Source: Lentisphaerota bacterium
GTDB lineage: Bacteria; Verrucomicrobiota; Kiritimatiellia; RFP12; JAAYNR01
Assembly (NCBI GenBank): GCA_016873675.1
Contig: VGWG01000006.1
Location: 1,200-65,199, forward strand
Length of the DNA: 64,000 nt
Direction of reading: 5' to 3'
In this document: piece after piece, positions 10,073 to 63,561 of the stretch
Position numbering within the stretch: position 1 is the first letter of the stretch
Layout of the letters: each line of letters starts with the position of its first letter
Notes under the pieces: model-generated
Seen by the model: the letters and a program-made list of their open reading frames with translations, nothing else
Database searches by the model: none
What the model was told of the DNA's origin: nothing
Translations under genes and position numbers: made by a program

Positions 10073-10235
10073 CCGTGATTGCCGAGCGAATCCCGCTTGC
10101 CGCCGCTCGTCGTTTGCGTCTACAATTGGCCCGCGCGTCGGGTCTATTCACACCGCATCCGTCTTGACCCGGCGTGCGAACCCGTTGACCATAACGGTTG
10201 GACGCCCCTCCAACCCCATCTCAGGAGCACCCATC

Positions 10236-11129
10236 ATGCAAAGCATCCCCGTCCTGACCGTCCGAGGCGGTTCGCTTGCCGAAGCCTACGAGCGCGCCTT
10301 GATCGCCCTGTACCGCGGCGGCATCCGCTTCCGCACGCAGTACGACAAACCGGGCGACCCGTTAAGCCTCGATGCCACGATGAACATCACCATCGACGAC
10401 CCGCTGGCCGATCCCATGATCCACAAGGCTTTCCCCGGCGGCATTTCCGACCTGCGCGAATATGTCTACGAGCTGGAGGGACGCAAGGATCACTGGGTCA
10501 AGGCGATCAACGATCCCGCCGACACCCGCTGGGAGTACACCTATCACGGCCGCCTGCAGAACTATGGTCAGTGGAAGGAGCGCGGCGCCGACGGCAAAAA
10601 CCAGATTGTCGGCCCGTTTCAGGTCGATCAGATCGCCTATGTCATCGACAAACTGGTTGCGCAGCCCTTCACCCGGCAGGCGCAGATGATCACCTGGATG
10701 CCCAACCACGACCTCGCCTGCTACGACCCGCCGTGCCTGCAGTCGCTTTGGTACCGGATCTTGGAGGACGATACCGGCGTGCAGTGGCTCAACGCCAATG
10801 TCCGTTTCCGTTCCAACGACGCCTGGGGGGCGAACTTCATGAATATGTTCGGCTTCATCCAGTTCAACCAGACCGTCATCGCTGCCGAGGTCGCGCGCCG
10901 CTCAGGCAAGCCGGTGCGCCTCGCGCGCATGAATTGGCAGGCCGACTCTTATCACATTTACGGCAAGGACATCGAACAGGCCGAACAGCGGCTCTTCAGC
11001 CGGTTGGAAACGACCGCATTCGAAGACCGGATCTACTCTTTCCACGACCCGGCCATCACCGAGATGTACCACGAGGAGGAGGCCGCCATTCTCCGCAAAA
11101 TCGACGAGATGTCGCGCCGGATGGGATGA
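10236..11129 (+). CDS. Thymidylate synthase (ThyA)-family protein, divergent
   Basis: Alignable to the ThyA catalytic core. RQAQMITWMPNHD matches RRIIVSAWN. PPCLQSLWY matches the catalytic APCHALFQFY Cys. RSNDAWGANFMNMFGF matches RSCDVFLGLPFNIASY. ADSYHIYG matches GDTHLYSNH. The N-terminal phosphate-binding RTGTGT region is not conserved. AGGAG ribosome-binding site 9 nt upstream of ATG 10236. Confidence 0.7.
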   Translation: MQSIPVLTVRGGSLAEAYERALIALYRGGIRFRTQYDKPGDPLSLDATMNITIDDPLADPMIHKAFPGGISDLREYVYELEGRKDHWVKAINDPADTRWEYTYHGRLQNYGQWKERGADGKNQIVGPFQVDQIAYVIDKLVAQPFTRQAQMITWMPNHDLACYDPPCLQSLWYRILEDDTGVQWLNANVRFRSNDAWGANFMNMFGFIQFNQTVIAAEVARRSGKPVRLARMNWQADSYHIYGKDIEQAEQRLFSRLETTAFEDRIYSFHDPAITEMYHEEEAAILRKIDEMSRRMG

Positions 11130-25406: not shown

Positions 25407-26213
25407 ATGAACACAGCCTTTTCAATAGAGACCCTCAAACAACTGACATCCCGATTGTCGGTGCCCCAGCGTTTGGAGATTCAGACGGTTCTGCGCATCC
25501 TTCAGGATGTCAATCTGGCAGGCAAGGCGTGTCTCGACATTGGCTTCGGCACGCCGGTTGCGTCGCGGGTGGTGCGGACAGCCGGCGGCTATTGGACGTC
25601 CGTCGTGCGTCATGCGGGTGAGGTTGGGACGGCGGCGGCGTTTCTGGACGAAGAGGTCGCGGCGCCCGGTCCGACGGGCGAACTGCCCTTTGAGGACAAG
25701 CAATTCGACGTGGTGGTGGTTGGCCATGGTTGTCTGACGGGTGATCCGGCCGCTGACGCCATCGCCCTGCGCGAGTGCCATCGCATCCTGAAGATCGGCG
25801 GGTTGATCGTGCTCACCGTCGAATTCAAGAAGCCGATCGGAATCGCCTACCTGCTCAACGGACGCCGGCTGGTGTCGCGCACCGGCGGGTGCTACTCCGA
25901 AGGCGCCATGTTTGATTTGATGAAGAGCGGTTTTGACGTGCTTGGCATGCGCCATTTCTGCCGTTTCTGGGTGCAACTGGTGCGGCAGTGGGCCGATCGG
26001 CGGCAGCGGCAATACGGCGAACATGACACGCGGCTCTCGCTGACGAGCATCCTCTATCCGCTGGCAGCGGGCTTGGATTTTCCGCTTTTCGGGTTCCGGG
26101 GCTATCTGCTCACGGCCTGTGGCCGGCGAAAGGGCTGGCGTCCGCGCGAGAAGCCGACCTTGAGCGATGGACGCAGCATTCAGGAGTGTGTGCTGCATGG
26201 CCTTGCGCGCTGA
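25407..26213 (+). CDS. Class I SAM-dependent methyltransferase
   Basis: Motif I-like LDIGFGTP, then DVVVVGH ... ILKIGGLIVL. Divergent from the carboxylase gene across an AT-richer intergenic region. Confidence 0.6.
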   Translation: MNTAFSIETLKQLTSRLSVPQRLEIQTVLRILQDVNLAGKACLDIGFGTPVASRVVRTAGGYWTSVVRHAGEVGTAAAFLDEEVAAPGPTGELPFEDKQFDVVVVGHGCLTGDPAADAIALRECHRILKIGGLIVLTVEFKKPIGIAYLLNGRRLVSRTGGCYSEGAMFDLMKSGFDVLGMRHFCRFWVQLVRQWADRRQRQYGEHDTRLSLTSILYPLAAGLDFPLFGFRGYLLTACGRRKGWRPREKPTLSDGRSIQECVLHGLAR

Positions 26214-26226
26214 GGCGCGTCCAACG

Positions 26227-27321
26227 ATGGAGCGGAAGATGGGAACAACCCGAGCGGTGCGGGCCGACAGTTGGCCGGACGCATGTGATTATGATGTTCC
26301 CGAAGGCACGCTGGAAGTCCGCACCGCTGTTTCCGAGGCGTCCGTGTTGCCGGTCCGCTCCCAGGCGGCGGCCGACCCGTGGGTCGCCCGGTTCCTGGCG
26401 CACCTGGCTGCGGAACGGAATCTCTCGGGGCACACGGTGGCGGGCTATCTGCAGGACGTCGGTCAGTTCACGGCATTCGTCTGGCCCGGCGAGGCCGAAC
26501 TCCCGCCGTACCGCTGGGCATCGCCCGACCGGACGCTGGCACGGCAATTCCTGGTCGCCTTCCATCGCGCGGGATGCGCGCCAGCCACGACCCGGCGCAA
26601 GCTCGCCGCGTTGCGGACGTTCTACCGCTTTCTCATACGCGAAGGATTGCTCGGAAAGAATCCCTTCTCCGGCCTGCGCGGTCCGCGGCGGACGCACGGC
26701 CTGCCGGTCGTCCTCAACGAAGGCCAGGTCGCGTCGCTCCTGGCCGCGCCGCTGCGAGAACTCGACACGCTGCAGGCCCGCGCGGCCGGAGGGATGCCCC
26801 CTGAAGCCGTTTACGCGCGGCTGCGGGACGCCGCGCTGCTGGAGGTTCTCTACAGCACCGGGGGGCGGGTGGCCGAGGTGGCGGAGCTGCGGATCGACCG
26901 GGTGGATCTGGCCGGCGGTGTAGCGCGCCTGCACGGAAAAGGGCGCAAGGAACGGCTGAGCGTGCTGGGACGCCCGGCACGCGCCGCGCTGGGCCGCGCG
27001 CTGGAATTCGCTGATCGCCTCTGGCCGAACGCGGCTGCCCGTGATGGTGTGCTCTTCCGCAACCTGCAGGGTGGCGTGCTGACGCCCCGATCCATCGAGC
27101 GCAACCTGAAGCACTGGCTCGCGGCTGCGGGGCTGCCGCCCGCCATCACCCCGCACAAGCTGCGCCATTCGTTTGCCACGCATTTGCTCAACGCCGGGGC
27201 GGACTTGCGCAGCGTCCAGGAGCTGCTGGGGCATGCGAGTCTCTCGACGACGCAGATTTATACCCACGTTTCGATCGAACGATTGAAAGCGGTTTATCGC
27301 AAGGCCCATCCACGGGCTTAA
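26227..27321 (+). CDS. xerC: Tyrosine recombinase XerC/XerD family
   Basis: Core-binding N-domain (FLAHLAAERNLSGHTVAGYLQD). Catalytic RHSFATHLL ... LLGHASLSTTQIYTHV with the nucleophilic Tyr. The exact start is uncertain, because the ORF-track start overlaps the methyltransferase. Confidence 0.8.
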   Translation: MERKMGTTRAVRADSWPDACDYDVPEGTLEVRTAVSEASVLPVRSQAAADPWVARFLAHLAAERNLSGHTVAGYLQDVGQFTAFVWPGEAELPPYRWASPDRTLARQFLVAFHRAGCAPATTRRKLAALRTFYRFLIREGLLGKNPFSGLRGPRRTHGLPVVLNEGQVASLLAAPLRELDTLQARAAGGMPPEAVYARLRDAALLEVLYSTGGRVAEVAELRIDRVDLAGGVARLHGKGRKERLSVLGRPARAALGRALEFADRLWPNAAARDGVLFRNLQGGVLTPRSIERNLKHWLAAAGLPPAITPHKLRHSFATHLLNAGADLRSVQELLGHASLSTTQIYTHVSIERLKAVYRKAHPRA

Positions 27322-36128: not shown

Positions 36129-37001
36129 ATGACCCCCTGGACCACCATTCTGACCGACCTGATCCGGCGCACCTCGTGCGACCTGCCCGAGGATGTCGAG
36201 CGGAGCCTCCGCACCGGCCGCGCCCGCGAGGCGTCCGGCAGCCGCGCCGCCGCCATCCTCGACACGATCCTCGAAAACACCGCGCTCGCCCGCGCCCAGG
36301 CGACCCCGATCTGCCAGGACACCGGCACGCTGACGTTCTTCTTCGATCTGCCCGACGACGGTTCCACGCGCCCCCCGGCGCTGGAGGAAGCCGCCCGCGA
36401 GGCGGTGCGCGAGGCGACGCGCCAGGGCTGGCTGCGCCGCAACACGATCGAGACGATCGGCGGCGGCTCGATTGACGACAATGTCGCCGCGGGCTCCCCG
36501 GTCTGCCATTTTGAGTTCGGGGCGCACCCGTGGTCCGAGGTCTCGCTGATGCAGAAGGGCGGCGGCTGCGAAAACATGAGCTCCCAGTACAGCCTCCCCG
36601 ACGAGGCGCTGGGGGCGGGACGCACGCTCGACGGGGTGCGGAAATGCGTCCTGCATGCCGTCTGGAACGCACAGGGACAGGGCTGCGCGCCGGGCATCCT
36701 GGGCGTGTGCGTGGGGGCCGATCGCGCCGGCGGATTCCTAGAAGCCAAGCGGCAATTGCTCCGCCCCCTGGAGGATTGCGCCCCCGATCCCCGGCTGGCG
36801 GATCTGGAGCGGCGGATCCTGGACGAGGCCAACACCCTGGGGATCGGGCCGATGGGCATGGGTGGAAAGACCACGCTGCTGGCGGTCAAGCTGGCGGCGC
36901 AGACCCGCCTCCCGGCCTCCTATTTTGTCACGGTCGCCTACATGTGCTGGGCCTGCCGCCGCCGGACCGTGCGGGTGGCGGCCGACGGCCGGGCCTGCTG
37001 A
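36129..37001 (+). CDS. Fe-S hydro-lyase alpha subunit (class I fumarate hydratase / L(+)-tartrate dehydratase alpha-type catalytic domain)
   Basis: N-terminal-domain motifs CQDTGT ... GGGSIDDN ... MGMGGKTT. 290 aa. No beta subunit is adjacent. Confidence 0.8.
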   Translation: MTPWTTILTDLIRRTSCDLPEDVERSLRTGRAREASGSRAAAILDTILENTALARAQATPICQDTGTLTFFFDLPDDGSTRPPALEEAAREAVREATRQGWLRRNTIETIGGGSIDDNVAAGSPVCHFEFGAHPWSEVSLMQKGGGCENMSSQYSLPDEALGAGRTLDGVRKCVLHAVWNAQGQGCAPGILGVCVGADRAGGFLEAKRQLLRPLEDCAPDPRLADLERRILDEANTLGIGPMGMGGKTTLLAVKLAAQTRLPASYFVTVAYMCWACRRRTVRVAADGRAC

Positions 37002-37197
37002 TCGCCGGGGCGCGTAACCCAGCAAGGGAAGGGCCTTGCGTCCACCCCATGTCATCCCGCCGAACGAATCGCGGCTGGAGGCTAATTGCTGGCGCGGTCT
37101 GGGGGGCTGACCGATTCAGCCGAAATGGCGGCTTTTCCGCAAGGTCAATGACGGGGGGTTAAGCGAAGGGTGTCCCCAGCCCGGCCGGCAATCGGTC

Positions 37198-37398
37198 TCA
37201 TTTCGCCGGATCAAATCCAAGCAGATGAATGCCGTTGAAATAGAAAATGATCATCGAGGCGACTGCCGAGTAGAGGACGGCGCACCCGACTACGATGATA
37301 GTCCTCTTGTACCAGACTGAATCCTTCTGGGGGCAAAAGACCACCTCAAAAGCACGCATGAAGATGTAGGCGCTAATGGCAAACAGTGGATATCCCAT
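37198..37398 (-). CDS. Possible small membrane protein (~66 aa)
   Basis: Two hydrophobic helices (FAISAYIFMRAFEVVF, IIVVGCAVLYSAVASMIIFYF). Lies in a locally low-GC stretch. Confidence 0.3.
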   Translation of the reverse strand: MGYPLFAISAYIFMRAFEVVFCPQKDSVWYKRTIIVVGCAVLYSAVASMIIFYFNGIHLLGFDPAK

Positions 37399-37616
37399 TT
37401 TGTTCTCTCCTTTCTTAAGTTGGCGAACAAGCGGTACGGCGTGTGTGATGGTGTCCATATGGCGAGCTACTTCCTTCAAGTGTTCTCGACCAGGTAACAC
37501 GCTGTCCAATGTCTAAAGTTCCTGTCGCAGAACGACACCATTATGACTGCCTCGCAAATTACGTCAAGCAGCGCTTGGATTTGTGCGGTCCTTTAGGGAC
37601 ATAGAAACTGAGGCAC

Positions 37617-37651
37617 GTGACTTGCCGGGGCTGCGTGACTTGCCGGGGCTG
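37617..37651. repeat. Perfect 17-bp tandem duplication GTGACTTGCCGGGGCTG x2
   Basis: Seen directly in the sequence, just upstream of the left island repeat. Confidence 0.7.
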
Positions 37652-37703
37652 ATGTCGGCATCAGTCCAGCACACGCGCCTGCCCCAACGCGCCCCTCCCA
37701 CGC

Positions 37704-37830
37704 CTCGAGCCTCAGCCATCTACACACTCAACCTTTCCGCGTCCAGCGTGTTGCGCACTGACACAGTTTCTCTACTGGCACAGATTCTCAGTCCCCGCAT
37801 CCCCCCAGATTCTCTGTCCCCGCATCCCGC
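37704..37830. repeat. Left copy of an imperfect ~100-130 bp direct repeat bounding the Wadjet-containing segment
   Basis: Shares ...TCGAG.C.CAGCCATC..CACAC.CAACCTT.TC.CGCGTCCAGCGTGTTGCGCAC(T/C)GAC(A/T)CAGTTTCTCT ... with the copy at ~46028-46131. Both copies carry an internal tandem sub-repeat ending in GTCCCCGCAT. Confidence 0.75.
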
Positions 37831-37951
37831 ACATTCCCTGTTGCATTGGCGCGGCCGAACGCGTTACGATTCAAGCTGTCGAGCGGGGTTTGGGCGATCC
37901 AATCCGCCTCTTTCCAAAGGCATTCCATCTCCCGCCAACGGAGGCTGCGCC

Positions 37952-38818
37952 ATGGGACGATTCATTATCGGCATCTACAACTACTGCGACTACTGGTGCG
38001 AACGCTGCGCCTTCACCCGCCGCTGCCGCAATTACAATGGCGGCTCCGCCGCCCGACGGCTGAAGGCGGCGGCGCGCGATGAGGATCGCGACGCGGTGAA
38101 CGCGTCGTTCTGGAACGATCTCGCCGAACGCCTGCGCGACGCGACGATCTTCGGCAGTATGGCGGACGACGCCGGATGCGAGGCGGACGACGCTGACGTC
38201 TGGGGCGACAGCGTTTGGGCCGACGAAGGTGGCGGCGCAGAGACCGACAGCCGGATCGACGCGGCAATGGATGCGAGGGATCGGGCGGTCAAAGCCCACC
38301 CCCTGACTCATCTGTCCCGTGACTACATGATGCGCGCGGGCCAATGGCTGAAGGACGCCGACGCCGACCTGAAGGGGCTGGCGGCGGAATGGCTGGCGCA
38401 GGCGGGCTCGCGCTACGACGACACCGATTACGAGGAGGCGGCCCACGAGGTCGGCGACCTGGTCGAGGTGGTCAACTGGTACCATACGCTCATTCCGCCC
38501 AAGCTGGCGCGCGCCCTCGGTAACCTGGCGGAGCCGGTTCTCGGCGACGGCGAATACGCGCGCATCATCCGCGAATCGCGCCTCTCCGACGCCAACGGCT
38601 CGGGGAAGGTCGCGCTGATCGCGGTCGAGCGTTCCATCGCCGCCTGGCTGCGGCTGCGCGAGCTCTTGCCGCGGCAGGAGGACGCGATTCTCGCCCTGCT
38701 GGTCCTGCTGGGACGCCTGCAGCGCGGCATCCGGACCGCCATCCCCGGCGCAGAAGCCTTCAAACGCCCCGGCTTCGACCCCGGTTCGACGTGCTTCGCG
38801 GATGACGAATCCAATTGA
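37952..38818 (+). CDS. Hypothetical acidic protein with an N-terminal Cys cluster (CDYWCERCAFTRRC), 288 aa
   Basis: GGAGG ribosome-binding site 8 nt upstream of ATG 37952. Lies inside the repeat-bounded segment, convergent with jetD. No recognised domain. Confidence 0.5.
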   Translation: MGRFIIGIYNYCDYWCERCAFTRRCRNYNGGSAARRLKAAARDEDRDAVNASFWNDLAERLRDATIFGSMADDAGCEADDADVWGDSVWADEGGGAETDSRIDAAMDARDRAVKAHPLTHLSRDYMMRAGQWLKDADADLKGLAAEWLAQAGSRYDDTDYEEAAHEVGDLVEVVNWYHTLIPPKLARALGNLAEPVLGDGEYARIIRESRLSDANGSGKVALIAVERSIAAWLRLRELLPRQEDAILALLVLLGRLQRGIRTAIPGAEAFKRPGFDPGSTCFADDESN

Positions 38819-39006
38819 CGACCGGGAGGATGGGACAACACATGCCGCGGCCGCAGTGTCAGCCAACGATCCGCCGCACCTCTCTCTTTCCCTCCACCCG
38901 GTCCAGCCCCGCCTTCTGGGATCGCTGGTAGAAACAGTTCCCGAGTCCTGAATATTTGAAAGCAGTAGGCCGCTCGCCATTCAGGCCCGTCCCTCGTGGC
39001 TCGCGC

Positions 39007-40212
39007 TCACACGTCGAAAAACATCTCCATGGTCTGCTCCTGCTCCAACCAGCCATGGGCGAGGGTGTGGCGCAGGCGGTCCGCATACGGAAAATCGGGA
39101 TGGTTGTCGAGGAAGCGCTCGGCGCGTCGGCGCTGGGCGTCGTCAAGCGGCAGCCGCGCGCGCGCCAGCGTTTCCGCGTCCGGCGGCATGTAGAGGCGGG
39201 TCGGCAGTACGCGGGCGATCTGTTCGGCGATGCGCAGGCCGTCGAGGTCGCTATCGCCCCAGTGCACCGCCGTCACACCCTCTTGCGCGAACCGGCGTAA
39301 CAGCGTCCGCACGGCCGCGTTCGGGTACCCCTCGGTGTAGAGGCCGGGGCGCAGCCGCTCGACCAGCCGCAAATACGGCGCCGCGTTTTCGCTGGTGGTG
39401 AGGCATGGGCAGGGCGCCTCCAAACGCACGGCGGTCAGACCCCGCACCGCCTCGCACGAAAGCAGCGCCGCCTCGCCCCTGCTCCACAGGCAATGCGGCC
39501 AGTCGAGCCACTCGCCCGCCCGCGTGCGGTAGGAGAAGGGCGCGAAAACCACAACATGCGCCGTGTAGGGGTTCTCAATGACGCCGGCGGCGGCGAGGAG
39601 CGTCTCCGGCGGATCGTCCGGATTGCCCGCCTGCACCCGGATCAGGTGCTCCAACTGCTGACGTCGCGCGCCAGCGCGCAGGGCCTTGCTGTCGTTGAAA
39701 CAGGTCGCGCCCAGCTCGGAGAGGGTGATGCCGGTCGGTGCGGCGCGCAAGGCGGCGAGCGCGTCAAAGAGCCGGACCAGATCGTCCGATGCCGTGGGGC
39801 AGCTTCTGAAGAAACGGAGGATTGACTCGGAATCCCGCAGCGTGTCAATGCAAGCGCATGCATCCGGGTGTAGCAGCTTGAGCCGTTGCAGTGTGCGCAC
39901 CACAAGCGCGTCACTGGTGTTTGACGGCTTTGCCGCCTGGGCCGCCACGCCCAGCAGCTCAACCAGCGGCTGCCAGCGGACGGGGTTACGCAGGCCGTCC
40001 TCAAGCCGCGCTTTCAGGCGGCCCGCCTCCTCGCGGCAGCCGGGAAAGATCTCCTCCAGCGCGCGGCGCACCGCCTTCTCCTGCGGCACCTCGCCGAGGG
40101 TGAGCGTGGCGGGCAGCGCCTCACCGGCGGCCGCCCGCCTCACCGCGCGCAGCAGCCATGGCCTCAAACCGGGGCAGCGTTCCAGCCGATCTTGCCAAAA
40201 CTCCTTGGTCAT
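39007..40212 (-). CDS. jetD: Wadjet JetD-like protein (DUF2220-type, C-terminal Toprim domain)
   Basis: 401 aa. Toprim acidic motifs ITSENAAPY (conserved Glu) and HWGDSDLDGLRIAE (DxD). It is the last gene of a four-gene operon after the SMC-like ATPase. Confidence 0.75.
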   Translation of the reverse strand: MTKEFWQDRLERCPGLRPWLLRAVRRAAAGEALPATLTLGEVPQEKAVRRALEEIFPGCREEAGRLKARLEDGLRNPVRWQPLVELLGVAAQAAKPSNTSDALVVRTLQRLKLLHPDACACIDTLRDSESILRFFRSCPTASDDLVRLFDALAALRAAPTGITLSELGATCFNDSKALRAGARRQQLEHLIRVQAGNPDDPPETLLAAAGVIENPYTAHVVVFAPFSYRTRAGEWLDWPHCLWSRGEAALLSCEAVRGLTAVRLEAPCPCLTTSENAAPYLRLVERLRPGLYTEGYPNAAVRTLLRRFAQEGVTAVHWGDSDLDGLRIAEQIARVLPTRLYMPPDAETLARARLPLDDAQRRRAERFLDNHPDFPYADRLRHTLAHGWLEQEQTMEMFFDV

Positions 40213-40293
40213 CCAACACCCGTGGGTTCGTCCTCATCGTTCACTCTGCATCCAAACCGATCACGGATCGCCGATTACTGGCCATCTCCGCTC

Positions 40294-43200
40294 TCACAAC
40301 TCCTCGCCGAAGGCGACCGGTCGTGGCTCGTTCTGCGCCGGGTTGAGCAGGTCGAGCTGCCGCGGTCCGGCGCTCCAGTGATAGGGGTAGAGGTGGACAT
40401 TGTACTGGCTGTCCTTGACCACCAAAATCGAGGTGGAGAAGGGAATCTCCCGCTTGACGCCGTCCTGGTCGGGCGAAGCGACGAAGAGCTGGAGGTCGAG
40501 GTCGCTGGCGAAGCCGAGCAACTGGTCGCGCCGACCGGCGTCGATGCCGTAGAATGCCTCGTCAAAAATCAGCACGGGGAGGCGGATCTTCTCCTTGTCG
40601 AAGAGGAAGTGCGCGATGGTGAGGATCAGCAGGTAGTTGGGGACGGCCTGTTCGCCGCCCGAGCCGATGCTCTTGACCTTGCGGTCCATGACGATGCCGT
40701 CCAAATCGGTGGTCAGCACCTTCAGCTCGTAGCGGAACCAGTTGCGGTAATCGAGGATCGGCGGCACTTCGCCGACCTCGGCGCTCATGATCTCCGCGGC
40801 GTGATCTTCGATGAAGGCGCGCAGCTCGGGCTCGGTCTTCTCGGGGTCGAGCGCGCGGTAGCCGCTGACGAGATCGTAGAGGCGCTTGCACGACTCCTGC
40901 GGCGTGATCGAGAAGGCGTAGCGGTTGTTGCCGAACGACCGCTGCTTCAGCAGGTGTCCGATGCGGCGCGCCATCTCAGTGAGACGGCGCACGCTGGTCT
41001 GCAGTTCGCTCACCAGTTTGTCCATGACCAATTGGCGGAAGAGCTTGAGCGTCTGCTCGTTGATCAGCTCCTCCTGTTCGCGCAGCTCGTGGAGCGTGCC
41101 TTGCCGCACCTCCTCCAGTGTGCGGCCGCGGCGATCGGTGAGCGCGTTCCCCGGTTGGTCATAGACGAAGCCGAAGGCGATCCCTTCGGGCAGCACCACC
41201 TTGCCGCGGATTTGCTCGGCCGTCACGGCGGCGGTCTCGCTGGCCGCGGCGGCGCGCGCGGTGAGCGCGCTGCGGCTGTCGGCGTCGGCGCCGCAGCGCG
41301 CGCGCGCGAACGCGTCGAGCGGCCCGTCGGGCACCACCAGCGCGAGCAACCGCTCCTGGACGGCGTCGCGCTCGGCGCGCGTGGCGGCGAGGTCTCTCAG
41401 CTTCTCTTCGCAGAAGGTTTTCAACCCCTTCACCCGCTGGTCGACGCGTCCGCATTCGAGTATGTTTTCGCGATGATCCGCTTTGAGCCGCTGCCACTTG
41501 CGCTCCACCTCGCGGAGCCGTTCCTCGATGCCTTCGAGGCCCTCCTTCTTCAAGGCGACAAGGAGGTCGGCATGGAGGTCCTGCCGGGTCTGGAGTTCCT
41601 CCTCGCACGCCTGGCAGGTCTCGCGCGAGTTGATCGTGTCGCTCTGGGCCAGGGTCAGCCGGGTGACCCCCTGCAGCACCGCGTCGCGCTGACGCGGCAC
41701 GTCTTCGCCGATCTCGTTGAGCAGCGTCCGGAAGAGGGCCAGTTGGTCGCGGCGGCCGCTCAGATCGGCGTGCTGGGCCGCCGTCTCCTTGCGATCCTTT
41801 TCGCACGCGACGCGTTTCTTCTCCAGCTCCCGCACCTCGCGCTCAAGCTCGCGGCGGCGGACCTCCTCGCCGATCAGCCGCGGCGGCGTCTCGGCGAGCG
41901 CCTGTTCACGCAGACGGAAATGGAGGATGTCGCGGTCGAGGAACTTCTCGGTGTGCGGACCGTGCCTGGCGGCGAGCTGGTGCTGGAGCACGGTCAAGGC
42001 GGCGGGGTCAGAGGCGCGCAGGTCGAAGAAGCGCTTGAGCCACTCCGCGAATGCGGCGGGCAACGGCTCGGTGTCGTCGCCGACCACTGCCAGGCTCTGT
42101 TCGGGGAAGTCGCGGAAGAGGAGTCCTCGCAAGTCGGCGGCGCTGGCGGCATCGGTCACCCAGGTCGCCAGCACGGCGTCGCCGATAAGCTGTTCGAGGG
42201 CGGCGAGCTCGCGGGTCGATGTCCCGGCTGCGGGCACGAGCCCGGCGTAGAGCGGCTGGGCGCGCAGCAGCCCTTGCCGGATCGCCTGCCAGGCTTGTGC
42301 GAAGCCTTTGACGGCGGGGACGGCCTCGCCGCGGCTCCGCTTTTCGGCTATTTCGGCCACGAGTTCGGCGAGGCGCTTATCGAGCCGTTCGAGGGCCGCT
42401 TCCGCGGCCTGGAGCTGGCGGTCGAGTCCTTGCGCGGCGGCATCCGCGGCGGTGCGGGTGTCGGCCAGGGGCAGCATGGCGAGGTCGGCTTCGGGATCTT
42501 CATTTTTGGGCGCGTCCGCGAGCACGCCCGCGAGCTGCGCGGTGGGGAACGGCATGGCGCGGCCCAGTTTGTGCAGCGTGCGGCTGAACGCCTGCACCTG
42601 CTTGCGCAGGGCTTCGCGGAGACGGGTCACGGCCTCGGTCGCCTCGCTCTGCCGGGTTTGGCAGACGACCAGTCTCTTCAGGGCCTGGTTGTTGCGGAGC
42701 TTGGCCTCGTCCACCCTCAGGCGCGCCTCGCGCTCCTTGGAGACCAGCCCCTGCGCGTCCTGGCGCTGCAGCTCCTGGAGGCGCAGGCCGGTCGTCTCGA
42801 CGAGAGTGTCGAGGCGCTGCTGCTGTTCGCGCAGGTCGGCGAGGCGGCGCTCCTCGGCGAGGCGCTGCTCGTCGCAGCGGTCGTAGGCATCCTGAAACTC
42901 GCGGCCGGCGAGGTGGCGCTCCTGCCAGAGGCTGGCGGCATGGTCGATGCGGGCGTTGGCGACCTGCTCGCGAAGGACCGCGAGATCCTCGGCGAAGCGG
43001 TGCTTGGCGCGCAGCTTGTCGAGATCCTGCTTGCTCTCCTCCAGCGATTTCAGATTGGCGATGACCTCCTCAAAAACCTCGTGCGGCGGCTCCTGCAGCA
43101 GTTGGCGGAAGAGCTGGTGGTAGTCGCTGGTGTGCGAGGCGATCTCGCGGTAGGCCTTGCCCGTGGCCAGGAAGCGGCAGATGTCCTCGAACGTCTCAGC

Positions 43201-43758
43201 ATCGGAGAAGAATCGGCTGGCCATCTCGTCGGCATAGGCGCCGATCTGGCCGTAATAGCCGGTGCCGCCCAGGGCGGCCTTGAGCTCGGCCTTGGTGGAG
43301 GGGCGGCGGCGTTCCCCATCGTTCTGAACCAGGGGCAGCGTGTCGAGTGGACACTCCTTGATCGCGCCCCAGCGTTCGACGTCCTCGTCCATGCTGCGCG
43401 TGCTGACGCCGATGGCGGCGGTGACGGGCCGGCCGTTGCGCCCGGCGATCTCGACCGCGGCGTAGGTGGTGCCGCCGTTGGGGTTGAGCGGGCCGTTGGC
43501 CTCGATATTGTAGCGCATCACCACGCCCTGCATACGGCGGCCGCCTGCGTGCCTGGCACCCGCCACGCGCGCGGCGGAGTTGAACTCCATCGAGCGGCCG
43601 GCGGTGAGCACGTAGTGGACCGCGTCCAACACGGTGGTCTTGCCCGAGCCGTTGTCGCCGAGCATGAAGAGGTGGCCGCCCGAGGGGATGTCGATGGTCT
43701 CGTCCACGAAGTTGTGGAAGTTGACGAGACGGAGCTTGGTGATGCGGTAGAAGTCCAT
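40294..43758 (-). CDS. jetC: Wadjet JetC-like SMC/MukB-family ATPase (~1154 aa)
   Basis: N-terminal Walker A LGDNGSGKTT. Very long central coiled-coil region. C-terminal ABC signature SGGEQ and Walker B LPVLIFDEAF. Start taken at MDFYRITKLRL (43758), since the ORF-track extension would overlap jetB by 88 nt. Confidence 0.8.
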   Translation of the reverse strand: MDFYRITKLRLVNFHNFVDETIDIPSGGHLFMLGDNGSGKTTVLDAVHYVLTAGRSMEFNSAARVAGARHAGGRRMQGVVMRYNIEANGPLNPNGGTTYAAVEIAGRNGRPVTAAIGVSTRSMDEDVERWGAIKECPLDTLPLVQNDGERRRPSTKAELKAALGGTGYYGQIGAYADEMASRFFSDAETFEDICRFLATGKAYREIASHTSDYHQLFRQLLQEPPHEVFEEVIANLKSLEESKQDLDKLRAKHRFAEDLAVLREQVANARIDHAASLWQERHLAGREFQDAYDRCDEQRLAEERRLADLREQQQRLDTLVETTGLRLQELQRQDAQGLVSKEREARLRVDEAKLRNNQALKRLVVCQTRQSEATEAVTRLREALRKQVQAFSRTLHKLGRAMPFPTAQLAGVLADAPKNEDPEADLAMLPLADTRTAADAAAQGLDRQLQAAEAALERLDKRLAELVAEIAEKRSRGEAVPAVKGFAQAWQAIRQGLLRAQPLYAGLVPAAGTSTRELAALEQLIGDAVLATWVTDAASAADLRGLLFRDFPEQSLAVVGDDTEPLPAAFAEWLKRFFDLRASDPAALTVLQHQLAARHGPHTEKFLDRDILHFRLREQALAETPPRLIGEEVRRRELEREVRELEKKRVACEKDRKETAAQHADLSGRRDQLALFRTLLNEIGEDVPRQRDAVLQGVTRLTLAQSDTINSRETCQACEEELQTRQDLHADLLVALKKEGLEGIEERLREVERKWQRLKADHRENILECGRVDQRVKGLKTFCEEKLRDLAATRAERDAVQERLLALVVPDGPLDAFARARCGADADSRSALTARAAAASETAAVTAEQIRGKVVLPEGIAFGFVYDQPGNALTDRRGRTLEEVRQGTLHELREQEELINEQTLKLFRQLVMDKLVSELQTSVRRLTEMARRIGHLLKQRSFGNNRYAFSITPQESCKRLYDLVSGYRALDPEKTEPELRAFIEDHAAEIMSAEVGEVPPILDYRNWFRYELKVLTTDLDGIVMDRKVKSIGSGGEQAVPNYLLILTIAHFLFDKEKIRLPVLIFDEAFYGIDAGRRDQLLGFASDLDLQLFVASPDQDGVKREIPFSTSILVVKDSQYNVHLYPYHWSAGPRQLDLLNPAQNEPRPVAFGEEL

Positions 43759-43769
43759 GGCAAAGCGGC

Positions 43770-44420
43770 TCAGGGTGCGGGTGGCTGGGGTGCGGGCGTT
43801 TCGTCGAGCGGGCGCGAGATCCGCTGGACGCTGTAGTGCCAGAGCGCGGGCAGGCACTCGTAGATGGTATCGTCGGGCGCGACCTTCTCATCGTCCGGCG
43901 GATCGAGCTTCAGCAGGAAGCGGTACTTCTCGAGCTGCGGCATGACCGGGCGGAGGATCTTGCGAACGTCCTCCTCGGCGTAGCCGTCGGGTTGCTCCGG
44001 GAAGAGTTCGAGGAAGCGATCGCGCGTGAAGAGGAGCAGGTCGCCAAAGCGGAAGCGGATGTTGTCGGGTTCCTCGATGCTGGCCGACTCCTCCTCCAGC
44101 TTGTGTTCGAAGAATTCGAGCAGAAGCATGAAGGCCAGGCACTCGTCGCGCCTGGTGAAATTGAACAAGTCGCGGTTGCCGGGGGTGATCCGATCATTGT
44201 ACCAGGTCTCCTTGTAGAGCCGGGCGCATTTGGGATCGGCCACGAGTTGCCAGCCGAAGGACTCCTCGAAGAAGGAGGCGAACTCGCGCTGGTGGCGGCG
44301 CAGGAAGTGGTAGTGCTCCTCGTGGTCGCTCTTGTAGAAATAGGGGGCTTCAAGCAGGATGTTCAACACAGCCTGCACGCGGGGTTTCTGCTTTTGGAGA
44401 AGGTCGTCAAGGGCGCTCAT
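43770..44420 (-). CDS. jetB: Wadjet JetB-like protein (DUF4194-sized, 217 aa)
   Basis: Size and position between the JetA-like and JetC-like genes. ATGA start/stop overlap with jetA. The called sequence is acidic and helical (MSALDDLLQKQKPRVQAVLNILLE ...). The Arg-rich upstream ORF-track extension was rejected. Confidence 0.65.
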   Translation of the reverse strand: MSALDDLLQKQKPRVQAVLNILLEAPYFYKSDHEEHYHFLRRHQREFASFFEESFGWQLVADPKCARLYKETWYNDRITPGNRDLFNFTRRDECLAFMLLLEFFEHKLEEESASIEEPDNIRFRFGDLLLFTRDRFLELFPEQPDGYAEEDVRKILRPVMPQLEKYRFLLKLDPPDDEKVAPDDTIYECLPALWHYSVQRISRPLDETPAPQPPAP

Positions 44421-45937
44421 GGGTGTGGCGGGGGTTGGGGCGCGGCGGGACGCAGCCGCAGCCGTTGGTCGAGGAAGGCGAGAGTGTGGCGATCGGCTTC
44501 GACGCGCACGGGGGCGGCGGTGGATTCCAAGGCGAATCCGAGCTTGGCGAGGCGCGCGCCGTTGCCGAGCAGACCGTTGCGGGCGAGTTCCAGCAGGCGG
44601 GGAAAATCCTCGAACGCGACGAAGGCGCCCTGTGAGACGAGTCGGGTTGCGTCCGCCGCGGGGAGCAGGCCGCGCTGGGCCAGCCACGTCTTGAGAGCCT
44701 CCAAGCGGGCCTCTTCGAGCGACTGGACGGGCGCTTCTGCGGCACGGGGCTTGGCGTCGAGCCACTGCACCGTCTCGGCACGCACGCGGTGGCGCTCCCA
44801 GTGCGGCTGGGGCGGCAGGGCCTTTTCGTTTTCATCCCAGAAGTGCATGTCGCCGACCAGACGGGCTGGCGCGAGCAGGCGGCGCAGGAAGGCCGCGGGA
44901 ACGACCGTAGCGGGAAGCGCGGCCATTTCCGAGACGCGCGCGCGCAGGTCTTCGAGACGGTGGCTGCGGCGCTCGAGTTCGCGCAGGTGGGTGAAGAGCT
45001 TGCGCCAGACGTGGAGCGCGGCGGTGTTGACGCGGCCGCAGAGCCGCTCCAGCGTGCCATCGGCGGCGTAGAAGACGGACAGGCCGGCCAGCGCGTGCTC
45101 AGGGTGGGGCAGCCGCGTGCGCATGAGGTGCGCGCTGGCGCGGCTCTCCTCCTGCATGAGAGCGAGGCACGCCTGCCAGCGGGCCGTGAGGCGGCCCTGG
45201 CGCAGCTTGCTGATTTCGGGAGTAATCTCGGTGCGAAGGGTGTGGATGCGGTTGAGAAACCTCTTGAGGAAGCGATCCAGTTCAGTGAGGATCAGACGCG
45301 CCGTTGGCGCGTCGTAGCGGCTGGTGGCGAAACCGAGGAGGCGGACGTTGAAATCGCCGAGGGTACGGCTGACGTCGTCGGTGAGAGCGCCCATGCGCGC
45401 GAGCCTGTAGAAGACGCCGCGCGCGGTTTCATAGTCGAGCGACTCAACACCGGTCTTGTTAAAAAGCCGGACCGTCTCGCGCAGTGTGCCGATGAGTTCC
45501 GAGAGGAGGTCGCGGGTGTCGGTGTCGGCCGGTTCGAGGTCGTCATGGCGGCGCGCCTCCAGCCAGAGGAGGAAAGCGGCGGCCTCATCGGCGAGGCGGT
45601 AGCGGAACTTGCGGCGGCGGTTATCCTTGTAGCCGCGCAAACGTTCTTTCTCGAGACGGTCGGTGATCAGGTTCCAGATCAGCAGTTGGCGCAAGTCCTG
45701 GTTGAAGAGTTCCGCCGTGTAGGCTTCGCCGCCCAGGGCGGAACGGACTGCGGCGTGGAGATCCTCGTGCAGCGGCTCCAGTTCGTGTTCGCGACGGAAG
45801 GCGAGCATCGCGGCAAGGAGGGTCACATAGGGGACGGCGCGTTCTGACAGGAGCAGGTGTCCCACGTTCCGGTTGCGACGCTCCAGGAGCTGGGCGGCGG
45901 GGTCTTGTGGCGATTCGGTTGGCGCGTCAATGGGCAT
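44417..45937 (-). CDS. jetA: Wadjet JetA-like protein (DUF3375-sized kleisin-like subunit, 506 aa)
   Basis: First gene of the operon. Size and position fit JetA/MksF. No enzymatic motif is expected for this subunit. Confidence 0.65.
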   Translation of the reverse strand: MPIDAPTESPQDPAAQLLERRNRNVGHLLLSERAVPYVTLLAAMLAFRREHELEPLHEDLHAAVRSALGGEAYTAELFNQDLRQLLIWNLITDRLEKERLRGYKDNRRRKFRYRLADEAAAFLLWLEARRHDDLEPADTDTRDLLSELIGTLRETVRLFNKTGVESLDYETARGVFYRLARMGALTDDVSRTLGDFNVRLLGFATSRYDAPTARLILTELDRFLKRFLNRIHTLRTEITPEISKLRQGRLTARWQACLALMQEESRASAHLMRTRLPHPEHALAGLSVFYAADGTLERLCGRVNTAALHVWRKLFTHLRELERRSHRLEDLRARVSEMAALPATVVPAAFLRRLLAPARLVGDMHFWDENEKALPPQPHWERHRVRAETVQWLDAKPRAAEAPVQSLEEARLEALKTWLAQRGLLPAADATRLVSQGAFVAFEDFPRLLELARNGLLGNGARLAKLGFALESTAAPVRVEADRHTLAFLDQRLRLRPAAPQPPPHP

Positions 45938-46027
45938 GTGGCAGACGATAGCAAACCGCCGCGCGGAAAGACAGCGCGAATTCGTTAGACGGGCTCAGGG
46001 ACAGGAAATCCTTGTCTACTCCCACGC

Positions 46028-46131
46028 ATCGAGTCCCAGCCATCCGCACACGCAACCTTCTCGCGTCCAGCGTGTTGCGCACCGACTCAGTTTCTCTGTC
46101 CCCGCATTCTCCTGTCCCCGCATTCTCCCGC
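46028..46131. repeat. Right copy of the imperfect direct repeat bounding the Wadjet-containing segment
   Basis: See the left copy (37704-37830). Located between the jetA start and the vapC 3' end. Confidence 0.75.
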
Positions 46132-46139: not shown

Positions 46140-46550
46140 TCAGCGGCGCGGCTTGCCGCGACCGCTGGGTGCCCGGGGGCTGGGCCTCGTGTATTCGACG
46201 CCCGGCAGCCCGGCAAAGTGTCCGTCCTGCGTCCAGAGCGTGGCCCGTTCCGACCAGGCGGTCGACAGGATCAGACTGTCCGCCATGGGCAGACGGTGCT
46301 TGAGGCTGATGAGCGCCGCACGCAGCGCAATCGCTTCGGTGACTTCAATCACTCGGCCTTGTTTCATCTGTCCAATGGCCTGCAGGGCCTTCGCCTCGTC
46401 GGCGACCGCATTCACTTTCTTGAAGACCTCGTACAGGCAAATCACGGGAACAAGCAGTTCGTCCACGTTCTCGACCAGAGGCGCAAACACACCTGCATGG
46501 CTTCCATCGAACAGGAACTCGATCCAGCCTGACGTGTCGACAACGTTCAT
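46140..46550 (-). CDS. vapC: Type II toxin VapC (PIN-domain ribonuclease)
   Basis: PIN acidic residues in MNVVDTSGWIEF ..., ... LYEV ... and ... DSLILSTA ... TQDGHF. ATGA overlap with the upstream antitoxin gene. Confidence 0.85.
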   Translation of the reverse strand: MNVVDTSGWIEFLFDGSHAGVFAPLVENVDELLVPVICLYEVFKKVNAVADEAKALQAIGQMKQGRVIEVTEAIALRAALISLKHRLPMADSLILSTAWSERATLWTQDGHFAGLPGVEYTRPSPRAPSGRGKPRR

Positions 46551-46756
46551 GCCCGGTCCTCCTCATCACGCTCAAACCGGGCATCATACCCCTTGAGAAA
46601 GCCCCGCATGCTGCGCATGGGGCGGAGCGGGATCAGTTCAATGCGATCGTCGAAACAGATGACCTGCAGGCGTTCGCCCGCGCGGATGCGGGCCCGCTCC
46701 CTGACGGCAACCGGAATGACGACCTGATATTTCGGGGATACGGTTACCGTGTCCAT
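46547..46756 (-). CDS. vapB: Type II antitoxin VapB (AbrB/MazE/SpoVT-type swapped-hairpin DNA-binding)
   Basis: 69 aa. MDTVTVSPKYQVVIPVAVRERARIRAGERL is typical of SpoVT/AbrB-fold antitoxins. Immediately upstream of vapC. Confidence 0.75.
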   Translation of the reverse strand: MDTVTVSPKYQVVIPVAVRERARIRAGERLQVICFDDRIELIPLRPMRSMRGFLKGYDARFERDEEDRA

Positions 46757-47024: not shown

Positions 47025-47666
47025 TCAGGCGTTGACGACGAGGCAACCCGCCATCATGTCGTGCAGCCCCTGCTTGCGCTCGGTGATGCCGACCATGATG
47101 AAGCCGACAAACAGGGTCAGGACCGAAAGGATCTTGCCAAAGTGCCGGCCTGTGGCTTTGGCAAACGAAATGGGATTGCCGTCCACATCGGTGACCTTGA
47201 TCCCCAGCGCCATTTTACCGAGCGTGGCCTGTCGCGGCGAGCTTTCGAGCAAGGCCGAATAGAGCCACCCCATGACGACGCCAATCAGATTGCCGATGGC
47301 CTCCGCACCCTCGACAGATCCGGTCGCGGCCCCATACACCATCCCGAAGATGAACCCCACGACGAATCCGGCGACCATCAGGACGAAACCGTCAATGAGG
47401 CACGCCGCAAACCGTTTCCAGAATCCGGCGTACCCCGCGAACGCCGCGGCCACAGGCATCGCGATCGGAGGCGCGGGCGGCAGGTGTGAACCCGGCGGCA
47501 GAAGCCCCTCGACTGATGAGGCGCACATCCAATCCTTCATCGTTTCGGCCCAGACCAGAGTCTCCGGACGCAGCCGCTGGGACTGGAACAGTTGCTGGAG
47601 CGCACTTTCCGGAACGGGTCCCTCCTGACGGCCGTCAACCGCGTAGTACCACAGACGCTCACTCAT
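47025..47666 (-). CDS. RDD-family membrane protein with an N-terminal DUF4339/GYF-like domain
   Basis: RLWYYAVDGRQEGPV N-terminal motif. Multi-TM C-terminal half with RDD-family spacing. Confidence 0.7.
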   Translation of the reverse strand: MSERLWYYAVDGRQEGPVPESALQQLFQSQRLRPETLVWAETMKDWMCASSVEGLLPPGSHLPPAPPIAMPVAAAFAGYAGFWKRFAACLIDGFVLMVAGFVVGFIFGMVYGAATGSVEGAEAIGNLIGVVMGWLYSALLESSPRQATLGKMALGIKVTDVDGNPISFAKATGRHFGKILSVLTLFVGFIMVGITERKQGLHDMMAGCLVVNA

Positions 47667-57019: not shown

Positions 57020-57598
57020 ATGGATGCGATCAGGACGCTCACAAGCCCGTTTGACGAGCGACAGGTACGCGCCTTGAAGGCGGGCGAATCGGTCCGGCTA
57101 TCGGGGACGATCTATACCGGCCGCGACCGGCTGCACGCCTTTCTTCACAGCGGCGGCGAGACGCCGGTCTCGCTGCGCGATGCGGCGATCTACCACTGCG
57201 GGCCGGTCGTGGTTCCGGCGGACGGCGGCGGCTGGCGGGTGGTGGCCGCCGGCCCGACCACGTCATCGCGCGAAGAGCCCTATATGGCAGGGCTCATCGC
57301 GCGCCACGGCGTGCGCGTGATCCTCGGTAAGGGGGGGATGGGCGACAAGACCCGCGAGGCCTGCCGCACCCACGGTTGCGTCTATCTGCAGGCCGTCGGC
57401 GGCGCGGCGGCATCACTGGCCAAACGGGTGACCGCCGTGCGGCGCGTGTTTTTCCTGGATGAATTTGGAGCGACCGAGGCGATGTGGGAATGGACGGTCG
57501 ACGCGTTTGAAGCGGTTGTGGGGATGGATACGCACGGCCGGAGCCTGTTTGACGAGATCCGCCGGTCATCGGAATCGCGACTGGCGGAGTTGGTTTAG
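57020..57598 (+). CDS. Fe-S hydro-lyase beta subunit (class I fumarate hydratase / tartrate dehydratase beta-type C-terminal domain)
   Basis: 192 aa. Swivel-beta/beta/alpha-domain motifs GTIYTGRD ... IYHCGP ... ILGKGGMG. The partner alpha-type gene is at 36129-37001. Confidence 0.8.
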   Translation: MDAIRTLTSPFDERQVRALKAGESVRLSGTIYTGRDRLHAFLHSGGETPVSLRDAAIYHCGPVVVPADGGGWRVVAAGPTTSSREEPYMAGLIARHGVRVILGKGGMGDKTREACRTHGCVYLQAVGGAAASLAKRVTAVRRVFFLDEFGATEAMWEWTVDAFEAVVGMDTHGRSLFDEIRRSSESRLAELV

Positions 57599-62409: not shown

Positions 62410-63561
62410 ATGAAGATGCCAAGAAAACGACTTGTTAGCAGCGTTCAGGAGGCGTTGCGGCGCAGCCGCTGCGTCGGGCTGGTCGGCCCGCGCCAATGCG
62501 GCAAGAGCACGTTGGCGCGGGAGGTCGCCGGGGCGGATGCGGCCGCTTATTTTGATCTCGAAGATCCGGTGTCTGAGGCCCGCCTGCGCGATGCGAAGCT
62601 CGCATTGGAACCGCTCAGCGGCCTCGTCGTGATTGACGAGGTGCAGCGGCGGCCCGACCTGCTGCCGCTGCTGCGGGTCTTGGCGGACCGTGATCCGCTT
62701 CCCGCGCGGTTTCTGCTGCTGGGCAGCGCCGCGCCCGAACTGCTTCGCCATGCGTCGGAGAGCCTGGCCGGGCGCATTGAGTTTATTGAAATGCGCGGCT
62801 TCACTCTTGATGAGACGGGGGACGCGCAGGCGCGCCAGCTCTGGAGCCGGGGCGGATTCCCGTTGGCTTATCTGGCTGCGAACGACCGCGACAGCCTGAA
62901 ATGGCGCAACGCCTTTCTCCAGGCGTTTGTCGAGCGAGACCTGCGACAGTTGGGAGTGGATTTGCCGCCTGCGACGGTGCGGCGTCTGCTGACGATGCTG
63001 GCCCACTATCACGGGCAGACGTGGAATGCGTCCGAAGTGGGACGCTCGATGCAGCTTTCCCACACGACCGTCAAACGGCATCTTGACCTGCTGACCGGCG
63101 CATTGCTGGTGCGCCAATTGCCTCCGTGGTTTGAGAATGTCGGAAAACGGCTGGTCAAGGCGCCAAAAATCTACCTGCGCGACACCGGCCTGCTGCACGC
63201 GCTGCTGGGGCTGCAGACCCTGGCGGATGTCGAGTCACACCCCGTTCTCGGCGCATCGTGGGAGGGGTTTTCGCTGGAAACGCTCATCGCCTGGCGGGAT
63301 GAACCGGCTGCGTACTTCTGGGGCACGCACGGCGGGGCGGAACTGGACCTCTGCTGGATGTCCGGGCCGCGTCGGCTGGGCGTCGAATGCAAATACACCA
63401 GCAGCCCGTCTGTGACAAAGTCCATGCGCGTCTCGCTCGAAGACCTGGCGCTCGACCACCTCTATGTGGTCCATCCGGGACGGGGACTTTTTCCACTCGC
63501 CGACCGGATCACCGCCGCCGGGTTGTCGGACATGCGGGCCATCCTGGCAGATGAGCACTGA
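62410..63561 (+). CDS. AAA-superfamily ATPase with a DUF4143-type C-terminal domain
   Basis: Walker A GPRQCGKST and Walker B VVIDEVQ. The overall layout matches the widespread ATPase-plus-DUF4143 family. Confidence 0.75.
   Translation: MKMPRKRLVSSVQEALRRSRCVGLVGPRQCGKSTLAREVAGADAAAYFDLEDPVSEARLRDAKLALEPLSGLVVIDEVQRRPDLLPLLRVLADRDPLPARFLLLGSAAPELLRHASESLAGRIEFIEMRGFTLDETGDAQARQLWSRGGFPLAYLAANDRDSLKWRNAFLQAFVERDLRQLGVDLPPATVRRLLTMLAHYHGQTWNASEVGRSMQLSHTTVKRHLDLLTGALLVRQLPPWFENVGKRLVKAPKIYLRDTGLLHALLGLQTLADVESHPVLGASWEGFSLETLIAWRDEPAAYFWGTHGGAELDLCWMSGPRRLGVECKYTSSPSVTKSMRVSLEDLALDHLYVVHPGRGLFPLADRITAAGLSDMRAILADEH

Follow-up and report, generated by a model that had tools for sequence, protein, structure and literature searches.

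A 64-kb stretch of a metagenome-assembled genome of Lentisphaerota/Kiritimatiellia type from freshwater-lake metagenomes (contig VGWG01000006.1; the whole stretch is called the window below) carries a complete anti-plasmid Wadjet operon, jetABCD, in a segment enclosed by two direct copies of a short non-coding element. The element recurs at a second, unrelated locus, designated L009, where two direct copies enclose an AbiE-like gene pair beside a BREX type 4 operon. Exactly two direct copies thus surround one complete defence module at both loci, in islands without recognisable mobile-element genes. We tentatively read the copies as recombination joints between defence modules, with somewhat less than even confidence.

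The repeat pair around the Wadjet segment

The repeat search detected a 79-nt direct repeat at 37695–37773 and 46019–46097, 87% identical, on the same strand and 8324 nt apart. Within 36–48 kb, this pair outranked every other direct repeat in combined length and quality. The initial annotation had proposed a same-orientation repeat pair around the Wadjet segment; the pair is real, and its coordinates are slightly corrected here. The invariant 20-mer GCGTCCAGCGTGTTGCGCAC occurred exactly twice in 64 kb, both times on the plus strand, against 0.02 occurrences expected in the shuffled window (none of 100 shuffles reached two). No third copy was found in the 64 kb with an nhmmer profile built from four copies, so the 20-mer count and the profile search both agree with the earlier statement that the window holds no other copy. 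The tandem pair of short units described as closing each copy was also recovered: the window has four exact occurrences of GTCCCCGCAT, two behind each core (Table 1).

The arrangement of left copy, cassette, and right copy, with both junctions, was recovered in at least seven contigs from several samples, assembled independently. According to Pfam and PADLOC, only the gene for a Cys-rich protein and jetDCBA lie between the copies, with neither integrase nor transposase, as had been stated; no integrase was detected in 37–47 kb either. The GC content of the bracketed cassette (0.65–0.71) matches that of the host, and that of positions 37001–38000 is 0.569 vs. about 0.65–0.70 around. The stretch to the left of the repeat is therefore low in GC, as claimed, but not gene-poor, since it holds a 66-aa open reading frame (ORF) with a ribosome-binding site.

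Anatomy of the four copies

Four distinct copies were compared: the left (L) and right (R) copies of the window and copies A and B of L009. The edges of the 77-nt core are sharp in all four, running from CCCACGC to CAGTTTCTCT, followed by GTCCCCGCAT, a variable spacer, and a second (G)TCCCCGCAT. The core is C-rich (32 C in 77 nt on the plus strand), and a run of 21 nt is invariant in all four copies. Two forms can be distinguished. The long form (L and B) has an extra 5' extension of about 110 nt starting from TCCTTTAGSGACAT and containing the CTGATGYCGGCATCAG palindrome, as well as a full second 25-nt tail unit; R and A represent the short form. Both long-form copies start with the 20-nt motif TC[CT]TTTAG[GC]GACA[TG][AG]GAAAC (37589–37608 in the window; 10149–10168, minus strand, in L009).

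Core identity was 98.7% between A and B (1 of 77 positions differs), 96.1% between L and B, 94.8% between L and A, 87.0% between L and R, 84.4% between R and A, and 83.1% between R and B. The right copy is consequently the most divergent member of the family (83–87% identity to the other three). The left copy and the long form of L009 and of a further contig, L017, share 94.7% identity over 132 nt.

Tandem Repeats Finder reported a 25-nt unit repeated 1.9–2.4 times at 37781–37841 and a 16-nt unit repeated 2.4 times at 46092–46128. Some 10 nt separate the end of the right tail from the stop codon of vapC. The perfect tandem duplication noticed earlier ahead of the left copy is present and 100% matching, but its unit is 18 bp (×2.0, 37616–37651) and not 17 bp; together with the palindrome CTGATGTCGGCATCAG (37649–37664) it lies inside the 5' extension of the left copy. 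The 14-nt motif TGTCCAATGTCTAA, located upstream of the left copy, also occurs 22 nt upstream of copy A of L009.

The second locus and the distribution of the element

JGI metagenome contigs were scanned for exact 20-mers, and the matching contigs were compared by BLAST. Among the 19 contigs obtained, the extended element was found in L009 and L017 only, the remainder having bare 20–25-mers. The scan missed the JGI contigs of the window itself, so the count is to be read as a lower bound. L009 is a 14.8-kb contig from another African-lake metagenome which, apart from its two element copies, has no DNA in common with the window. The copies are in direct orientation, 2.3 kb apart, around a 2.1-kb AbiE-like pair next to the BREX type 4 operon. 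Read in the orientation of the element, copy A comes after a 198-aa gene and a small ORF that both point backwards; the cassette behind copy A is likewise reversed and holds a gene for an AbiEi_2-domain protein (1.5e-16) and a 272-aa ORF. The latter has no library match and is probably a nucleotidyltransferase, judging by eye from a GG...DVD motif. Behind copy B lie a 494-aa gene and the genes for BrxP (3e-232) and BrxC (E = 0, 1833 bits); the contig ends inside a further ORF, which has 582 aa or more. The BREX operon spans 1–9731, its 494-aa protein is PDC-S57-like, and its GC content (0.52–0.58) is below that of its flank. No integrase was found in the 14.8 kb of L009. A 12-nt tandem repeat, GGCGACTTGTGC (×4.2), is situated at L009 9880–9930, between copy B and the BREX operon.

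The earlier suggestion of a repeat family is supported, as the element in L009/L017 brackets an AbiE-like pair beside BREX type 4. The four module boundaries with copies are those between the 66-aa ORF and the Cys-rich gene, between Wadjet and VapBC, between the 198-aa gene and the AbiE-like pair, and between the AbiE-like pair and BREX type 4.

Outside these loci, the exact 20-mer scan of GTDB species representatives yielded chance 20–22-mers in unrelated taxa only, and viral contigs matched neither of two different 20-mers used as queries. Distant blastn searches with the long form detected nothing in plasmids and phages, and the core did not turn up when related loci (about 450 kb) were searched with the profile. 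The element, about 100–250 bp long, appears to represent a lineage-specific, hairpin-less family that has not been described previously.

Homologues of the 198-aa flank gene of L009 (L045–L052, e.g., L046 2–13751) sit in a conserved cluster with genes for a 1580-aa PNP_UDP_1 protein, 682-aa, 71-aa, and 342-aa proteins, the 186-aa homologue, DUF429, and a 1747-aa DEAD/UvrD helicase. This cluster looks like an uncharacterised defence-type system.

The element is non-coding and shows no significant fold

A protein-coding remnant was considered and rejected. All three forward frames are open, but the ten mismatches between L and R fall on all codon positions (our own tally from the alignment), that is, codon periodicity is absent. 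A reverse-strand, ATG-initiated peptide, read by eye, differs between the copies and was rejected for that reason.

No significant fold was obtained on either strand of the four copies, as DNA or as RNA (z = +0.2 to −2.1 vs. shuffles); for DNA folds on both strands of all four copies, z was +0.2 to −1.3. The RNAalifold consensus fold had −6 kcal/mol and no compensatory pairs. The element had no Rfam match, the only gathering-threshold match in the window being a tRNA-Asp at 16.6 kb, and a permissive Rfam scan of the element gave chance-level matches alone (E of at least 0.23). No sigma70-like promoter was predicted inside the element, and no inverted repeat touches its ends. Sequence reading revealed no target-site duplication at the short copies. 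A dyad-symmetric recombinase-binding core was not evident around the invariant 21-nt run. By eye, resemblance to a dif/Xer-like site was limited to the heptamer GTGCGCA of a XerC arm, with no XerD arm.

The repeat lies outside the Wadjet unit

JetA homologues with 74–84% identity are common in this clade. Locus L043 has a complete jetABCD between genes for a glycyl-radical activase and a Na/Pi transporter, and L041 has a jetAB remnant between unrelated genes. Neither jet locus has the Cys-rich gene, the element, or any flanking direct repeat. On the jetA side, homology between the window operon and those of L043/L044 breaks off about 30 nt before the gene, at a shared TTTGCTATCGT box; on the other side it ends with the jetD stop codon. 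The idea that the element is part of the Wadjet unit was rejected on both counts. Because jetABCD of relatives sits elsewhere without the repeat, the element is part of the scaffold of the island and no component of Wadjet; because it is found in unrelated places with just its four genes, jetABCD is mobile within the clade. The TTTGCTATCGT box, about 15–25 nt upstream of the jetA ATG, is shared with L043/L044 and matched partially in L041/L042; it is likely the jet operon's own promoter.

At L041 10001–13237, a 331-aa protein without a Pfam match replaces jetC and jetD behind jetA and jetB. This locus is probably a decayed Wadjet operon.

The site after fumA

The gene order thiH-thiG-thiS-tpiA-secG-MGS-fumA is kept in relatives whose FumA is 81–87% identical to that of the window. 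What follows fumA differs: a BrnT-type toxin-antitoxin (TA) pair and a DUF4143 fragment in L035; core genes (ParA-like, Mur ligase, FtsW) in L036–L039; and an integrase fragment, BrnT, and then Rnf genes in L040. None of the right-hand genes of L035–L040 is present in the window, and the core of the element is absent from all these loci. These comparisons show that the site behind fumA is a hotspot of variable content.

An empty site, at which a single copy would link the fumA and vapBC sides, was sought through fumA homologues, through exact look-ups of vapC, the RDD/GYF protein, and the Cys-rich protein, and through the flank gene of L009. No such site was found, the right flanks of the relatives differing altogether, and these searches gave no deletion variants or further copies. 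Nor is the variable DNA behind fumA bounded by att-like repeats in L035 or L040. The 20-nt motif that starts the long form recurs in the closest relative, L035 (8918–8937), 9 nt after the fumA stop codon and followed by TA genes; chance alone would give about 0.002 matches over the 512 kb searched. This motif may mark an old, ancestral edge of the island.

The integrase fragment of L040 (3574–3798, directly after fumA) comprises 74 aa and is 58% identical over 48 residues to the tyrosine recombinase of the window described below. A gene for a DUF4143/AAA_14 ATPase is present in the window at 62410–63561 (plus strand), and L035 contains a 48% identical 190-aa fragment (9848–10420) about 1 kb from fumA; this pair of similar sequences hints at rearrangement between these regions. 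The fumarase alpha and beta genes of the window (beta, Fumerase_C, at 57020–57598) are 20 kb apart, and alpha is unlinked from beta also in L035, L036, and L040.

Genes in and around the bracketed segment

Table 1. Positions of the element copies and of the genes in and next to the bracketed segment of the window.
Feature	Position	Strand	Evidence or remark
fumA alpha (class I fumarase, Fumerase)	36129–37001	+	left core-gene flank
66-aa hydrophobic small ORF, translation MGYPLFAISAYIFMRAF...	37198–37398	−	ribosome-binding site GGAGA; called as gene in L005–L007
14-nt motif TGTCCAATGTCTAA upstream of left copy	37503–37516	+	exact-match search, window and all loci
Left copy, 5' extension of long form, begins TCCTTTAGGGACATAGAAAC	37589–37696	+	common to L009 copy B
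Left copy, core, 77 nt, CCCACGC...CAGTTTCTCT	37697–37773	+	alignment, profile
Left copy, tail: 17-nt insertion, then 25-nt unit CAGATTCTCWGTCCCCGCATCCCCC × about 2	37774–37841	+	GTCCCCGCAT at 37791 and 37816
Cys-rich ORF, 288 aa, N-terminal CX3CX2CX5C	37952–38818	+	sequence, family alignment
jetD, 401 aa	39007–40212	−	Pfam JetD_C/DUF2399; PADLOC JetD
jetC, SMC-like ATPase, 1154 aa as called in L001	40294–43758	−	PADLOC JetC 2.8e-51; Pfam AAA_29, SbcC_Walker_B, SMC_N
jetB, 216 aa as called in L001	43770–44420	−	Pfam DUF2398/DUF4194/MksE; PADLOC JetB
jetA, 506 aa	44417–45937	−	Pfam DUF2397; PADLOC JetA2
Right copy, core, 77 nt, short form	46021–46097	+	alignment, profile
Right copy, tail: 16-nt unit ×2.4	46098–46128	+	GTCCCCGCAT at 46098 and 46114
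vapC, PIN	46140–46550	−	Pfam PIN 1.3e-14
vapB, AbrB/MazE-type	46547–46756	−	Pfam MazE_antitoxin 1.9e-7; NCBIfam AbrB domain
RDD/GYF protein	47025–47666	−	adjoins vapBC

All four genes that define Wadjet are present, encoding JetA (DUF2397), JetB (DUF2398/DUF4194), the SMC-like ATPase JetC, and JetD (DUF2399/JetD_C). The type is mixed: in PADLOC, JetA and JetB best matched the 'A2/B2' models, and JetC and JetD the 'C1/D1' models. The longest ORF of jetC extends to 43857.

The 288-aa Cys-rich protein had no match in Pfam, NCBIfam, PADLOC, or PDB sequences. It belongs to an uncharacterised family of 1776 cluster representatives (E ≤ 1e-3), mostly of 250–290 aa, in which C12, D13, W15, C16, R18, C19, and C25 (YCDxWCxRCxFxxxC) are invariant. 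The protein is probably metal- or Fe-S-binding. A single-sequence AlphaFold2 model reached a mean confidence score (pLDDT) of 42, too poor for a fold search. The gene does not accompany jetABCD in L043 and L041.

On the left side, a sigma70-like TTGACG-16-CATAAT at 37567–37540 (minus strand) reads toward the 66-aa ORF with a leader of about 140 nt. The 66-aa ORF had no family match in library searches; located in the low-GC patch after fumA, it could encode a small membrane toxin or peptide.

Directly outside the right copy lies the vapBC TA pair, and then the gene for the RDD/GYF protein. From 47.7 kb onward, genes for an acyl-CoA dehydrogenase, electron transfer flavoprotein, and fatty-acid synthesis follow. 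The RDD domain of the 47025–47666 protein matched PADLOC PD-T4-6 (6.6e-11) over its C-terminal 140 residues only, so that the accessory stretch may extend to about 47.7 kb.

The sole tyrosine recombinase in the 64 kb (26167–27321, plus strand, 384 aa) has an N-terminal SAM-like domain plus a Phage_integrase domain and looks Xer-like. Its gene sits among housekeeping genes, between a methyltransferase gene and kdtA, 10 kb from the repeats.

Proposed recombination joints between defence modules

The proposed junction element consists of the C-rich, non-palindromic 77-nt core, two GTCCCCGCAT-containing tail units and, in its long form, the 5' extension of about 110 nt. DNA carrying one copy could recombine with a resident copy, which would give a copy-module-copy arrangement. 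The event might be carried out by a recombinase supplied in trans or by RecA acting on 77–130 nt of homology. The reverse reaction between direct copies could delete or circularise the module. Recombination at the element, its enzyme, and its direction are proposed here from sequence comparison. The proposal is based on the direct pairs at two loci, the sharp edges, the invariant 21-mer, the near-identity of A and B, and the positions at module boundaries. The difference of only 1 in 77 positions between A and B fits a recent recombination or conversion event.

Several observations weigh against this reading. Only two loci are at hand, so the number of cases is small, and the census behind them is the lower bound given above. 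The island contains no dedicated recombinase, the only one in the 64 kb being the Xer-like protein in its housekeeping context. All seven to eight contigs of the population carry the integrated arrangement, and neither an empty site, a deletion variant, nor a circle junction was seen. L is closer to the copies of L009 (95–96%) than to R (87%), and therefore the L-R pair represents neither a fresh attL/attR duplication nor the outcome of a single recent event. Both arms are retained in the long form, and the order is long-cassette-short in the window and short-cassette-long in L009; a simple attP × attB crossover thus fits poorly. Finally, the segment bracketed in the window comprises two unrelated modules, the Cys-rich gene and jetABCD. 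The initial interpretation as att-like scars, or as recombination-mediated insertion of a defence cassette, accordingly stands in part: a real repeat family bounds the defence segment and recurs at a second locus with different cargo, but neither an empty site nor a linked recombinase was found, L is closer to the L009 copies than to R, the forms are not chimeric, and the bracketed segment holds two modules.

A stronger version of the recombination-joint reading is improbable. It would assume a hairpin-less, integron-independent cassette system in which an unlinked recombinase acts on a conserved site of about 90–240 nt and inserts, excises, and shuffles whole defence operons (Wadjet, AbiE, possibly BREX) in islands of PVC-group (Planctomycetes-Verrucomicrobia-Chlamydiae) bacteria that are free of mobile-element genes.

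Among known systems, the closest analogy in behaviour is that of cis-mobilisable elements (CIMEs) and tandem accretion at att sites, from which only the flanking direct repeats are found here. CIMEs lack integration and transfer genes, keep flanking attL and attR, depend on a recombinase in trans, and form arrays with repeated att sites (PMC5704250). Direct repeats at both segment ends are present in the window as well as in L009. However, no parent integrative and conjugative or mobilisable element, integrase, or target gene (tRNA or gene 3' end) was identifiable here, and the window pair is only 87% identical with non-chimeric arms.

Core defence hotspots free of mobile genetic elements, with no identifiable mode of mobilisation, are described for cDHS1/2 of P. 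aeruginosa and hotspot #37 of E. coli (PMC10250203, PMC10121019). The site next to the conserved core gene fumA resembles them in holding differing defence and TA content among relatives. Conserved core genes occupy both flanks there, whereas only the left flank is conserved here among the relatives found; a module-separating internal repeat, as found here, is not mentioned in the searched passages of those papers.

Alternative explanations

The element could be a passive dispersed repeat, i.e., a decaying lineage-specific intergenic relic resembling REP elements or miniature inverted-repeat transposable elements, that lies in permissive island DNA and flanks the modules by coincidence. We regard this as possible but rather doubtful. 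The occurrence of long, short, and partly truncated forms with slippage-type tandem duplications would agree with it, as would the missing linked recombinase and the location of both loci in low-GC intergenic patches of islands. The closer similarity of L to the copies on the other contig than to its neighbour R is also what is expected of independently spreading members. REP/BIME, ERIC, Correia, BOX, and RUP repeats are palindromic or bear terminal inverted repeats and are present in tens to hundreds of copies. The element is likewise short, lineage-specific, non-coding, and intergenic, with full and truncated variants, but it has no dyad symmetry, terminal inverted repeats, hairpin potential (z 0.2 to −2.1), or target-site duplication at the short copies. 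Every count that was measurable is low: two copies in the 64 kb, and none in either the GTDB representatives or the roughly 450 kb of related loci. All four distinct copies known are at defence-module junctions, and at either locus one complete module is enclosed by exactly two direct copies.

Alternatively, the reverse complement of the element may be a regulatory or insulator module: a control region, with tandem ATGCGGGGAC as putative protein-binding sites plus the core, that was duplicated before island operons, so that the direct repeats would be paralogous upstream regions of two co-directional units. Reverse-complemented, all four copies indeed lie upstream of an outward-reading gene, at about 300 nt from the 66-aa ORF, 85 nt from jetA, 170 nt from abiEi, and 100–200 nt from the small ORF and 198-aa gene of L009. 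The units on either side are co-directional at the short forms and divergent at the long forms, and the tandem 10-nt units at 16–25-nt spacing resemble protein-binding arrays. Nevertheless, we consider this explanation unlikely. The element contains no sigma70-like promoter, the likely promoter box of jetA (TTTGCTATCGT) lies between the element and the ATG, and the L043/L044 operons do without the element. Identity of 85–96% over 90–240 nt before unrelated genes far exceeds what a shared operator would need, and the two loci have no common regulator gene. A related candidate, an upstream region belonging to one gene family, was rejected since the two long copies are followed by genes with no relation to each other, one of 288 aa and one of 494 aa.

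A one-off local duplication or an assembly artefact might be suspected from the presence of only two copies in the window and from the metagenomic origin of the genome. We find it very improbable. Independent assemblies from several samples reproduce both junctions, so the arrangement is not an assembly artefact; in addition, the element was found at a second, unrelated locus in different samples, and 87% identity excludes recent duplication or assembly collapse.

Defence cassettes are documented in sedentary chromosomal integrons, and attC sites need a single-stranded hairpin fold (10.1101/2024.07.02.601686). The repeats could then be attC sites and the segment a cassette of an integron or of an attC cluster lacking an integrase (CALIN), to which the defence units bounded by a recurring direct site of roughly attC length (about 100 nt) and the nearby TA modules bear a likeness; this explanation can practically be dismissed, because both strands fold no better than their shuffled versions and covariation is missing from the consensus (−6 kcal/mol), so that the R''-L''/L'-R' hairpin is missing, because IntI, attI, and the cassette promoter Pc were not found here and the only tyrosine recombinase is Xer-like and 10 kb off, and because the cassettes are multi-gene (up to 8.3 kb, five genes on both strands in the window) with their own promoters and mixed orientation, unlike the short, mostly promoterless, co-oriented cassettes of integrons.

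Implications

Should the element turn out to act as a regulatory block, or to spread as a passive repeat, what is left would be a new family of lineage-specific intergenic repeats, of modest interest. The second locus raises it above an ordinary intergenic repeat pair. How single systems are gained and lost in defence islands without mobile-element genes is acknowledged as an open question (PMC10250203, PMC10121019). A short site that recurs at the joints of defence modules, with different cargo in two loci, and that comes from a poorly studied phylum, is a concrete, testable candidate for the missing recombination substrate.

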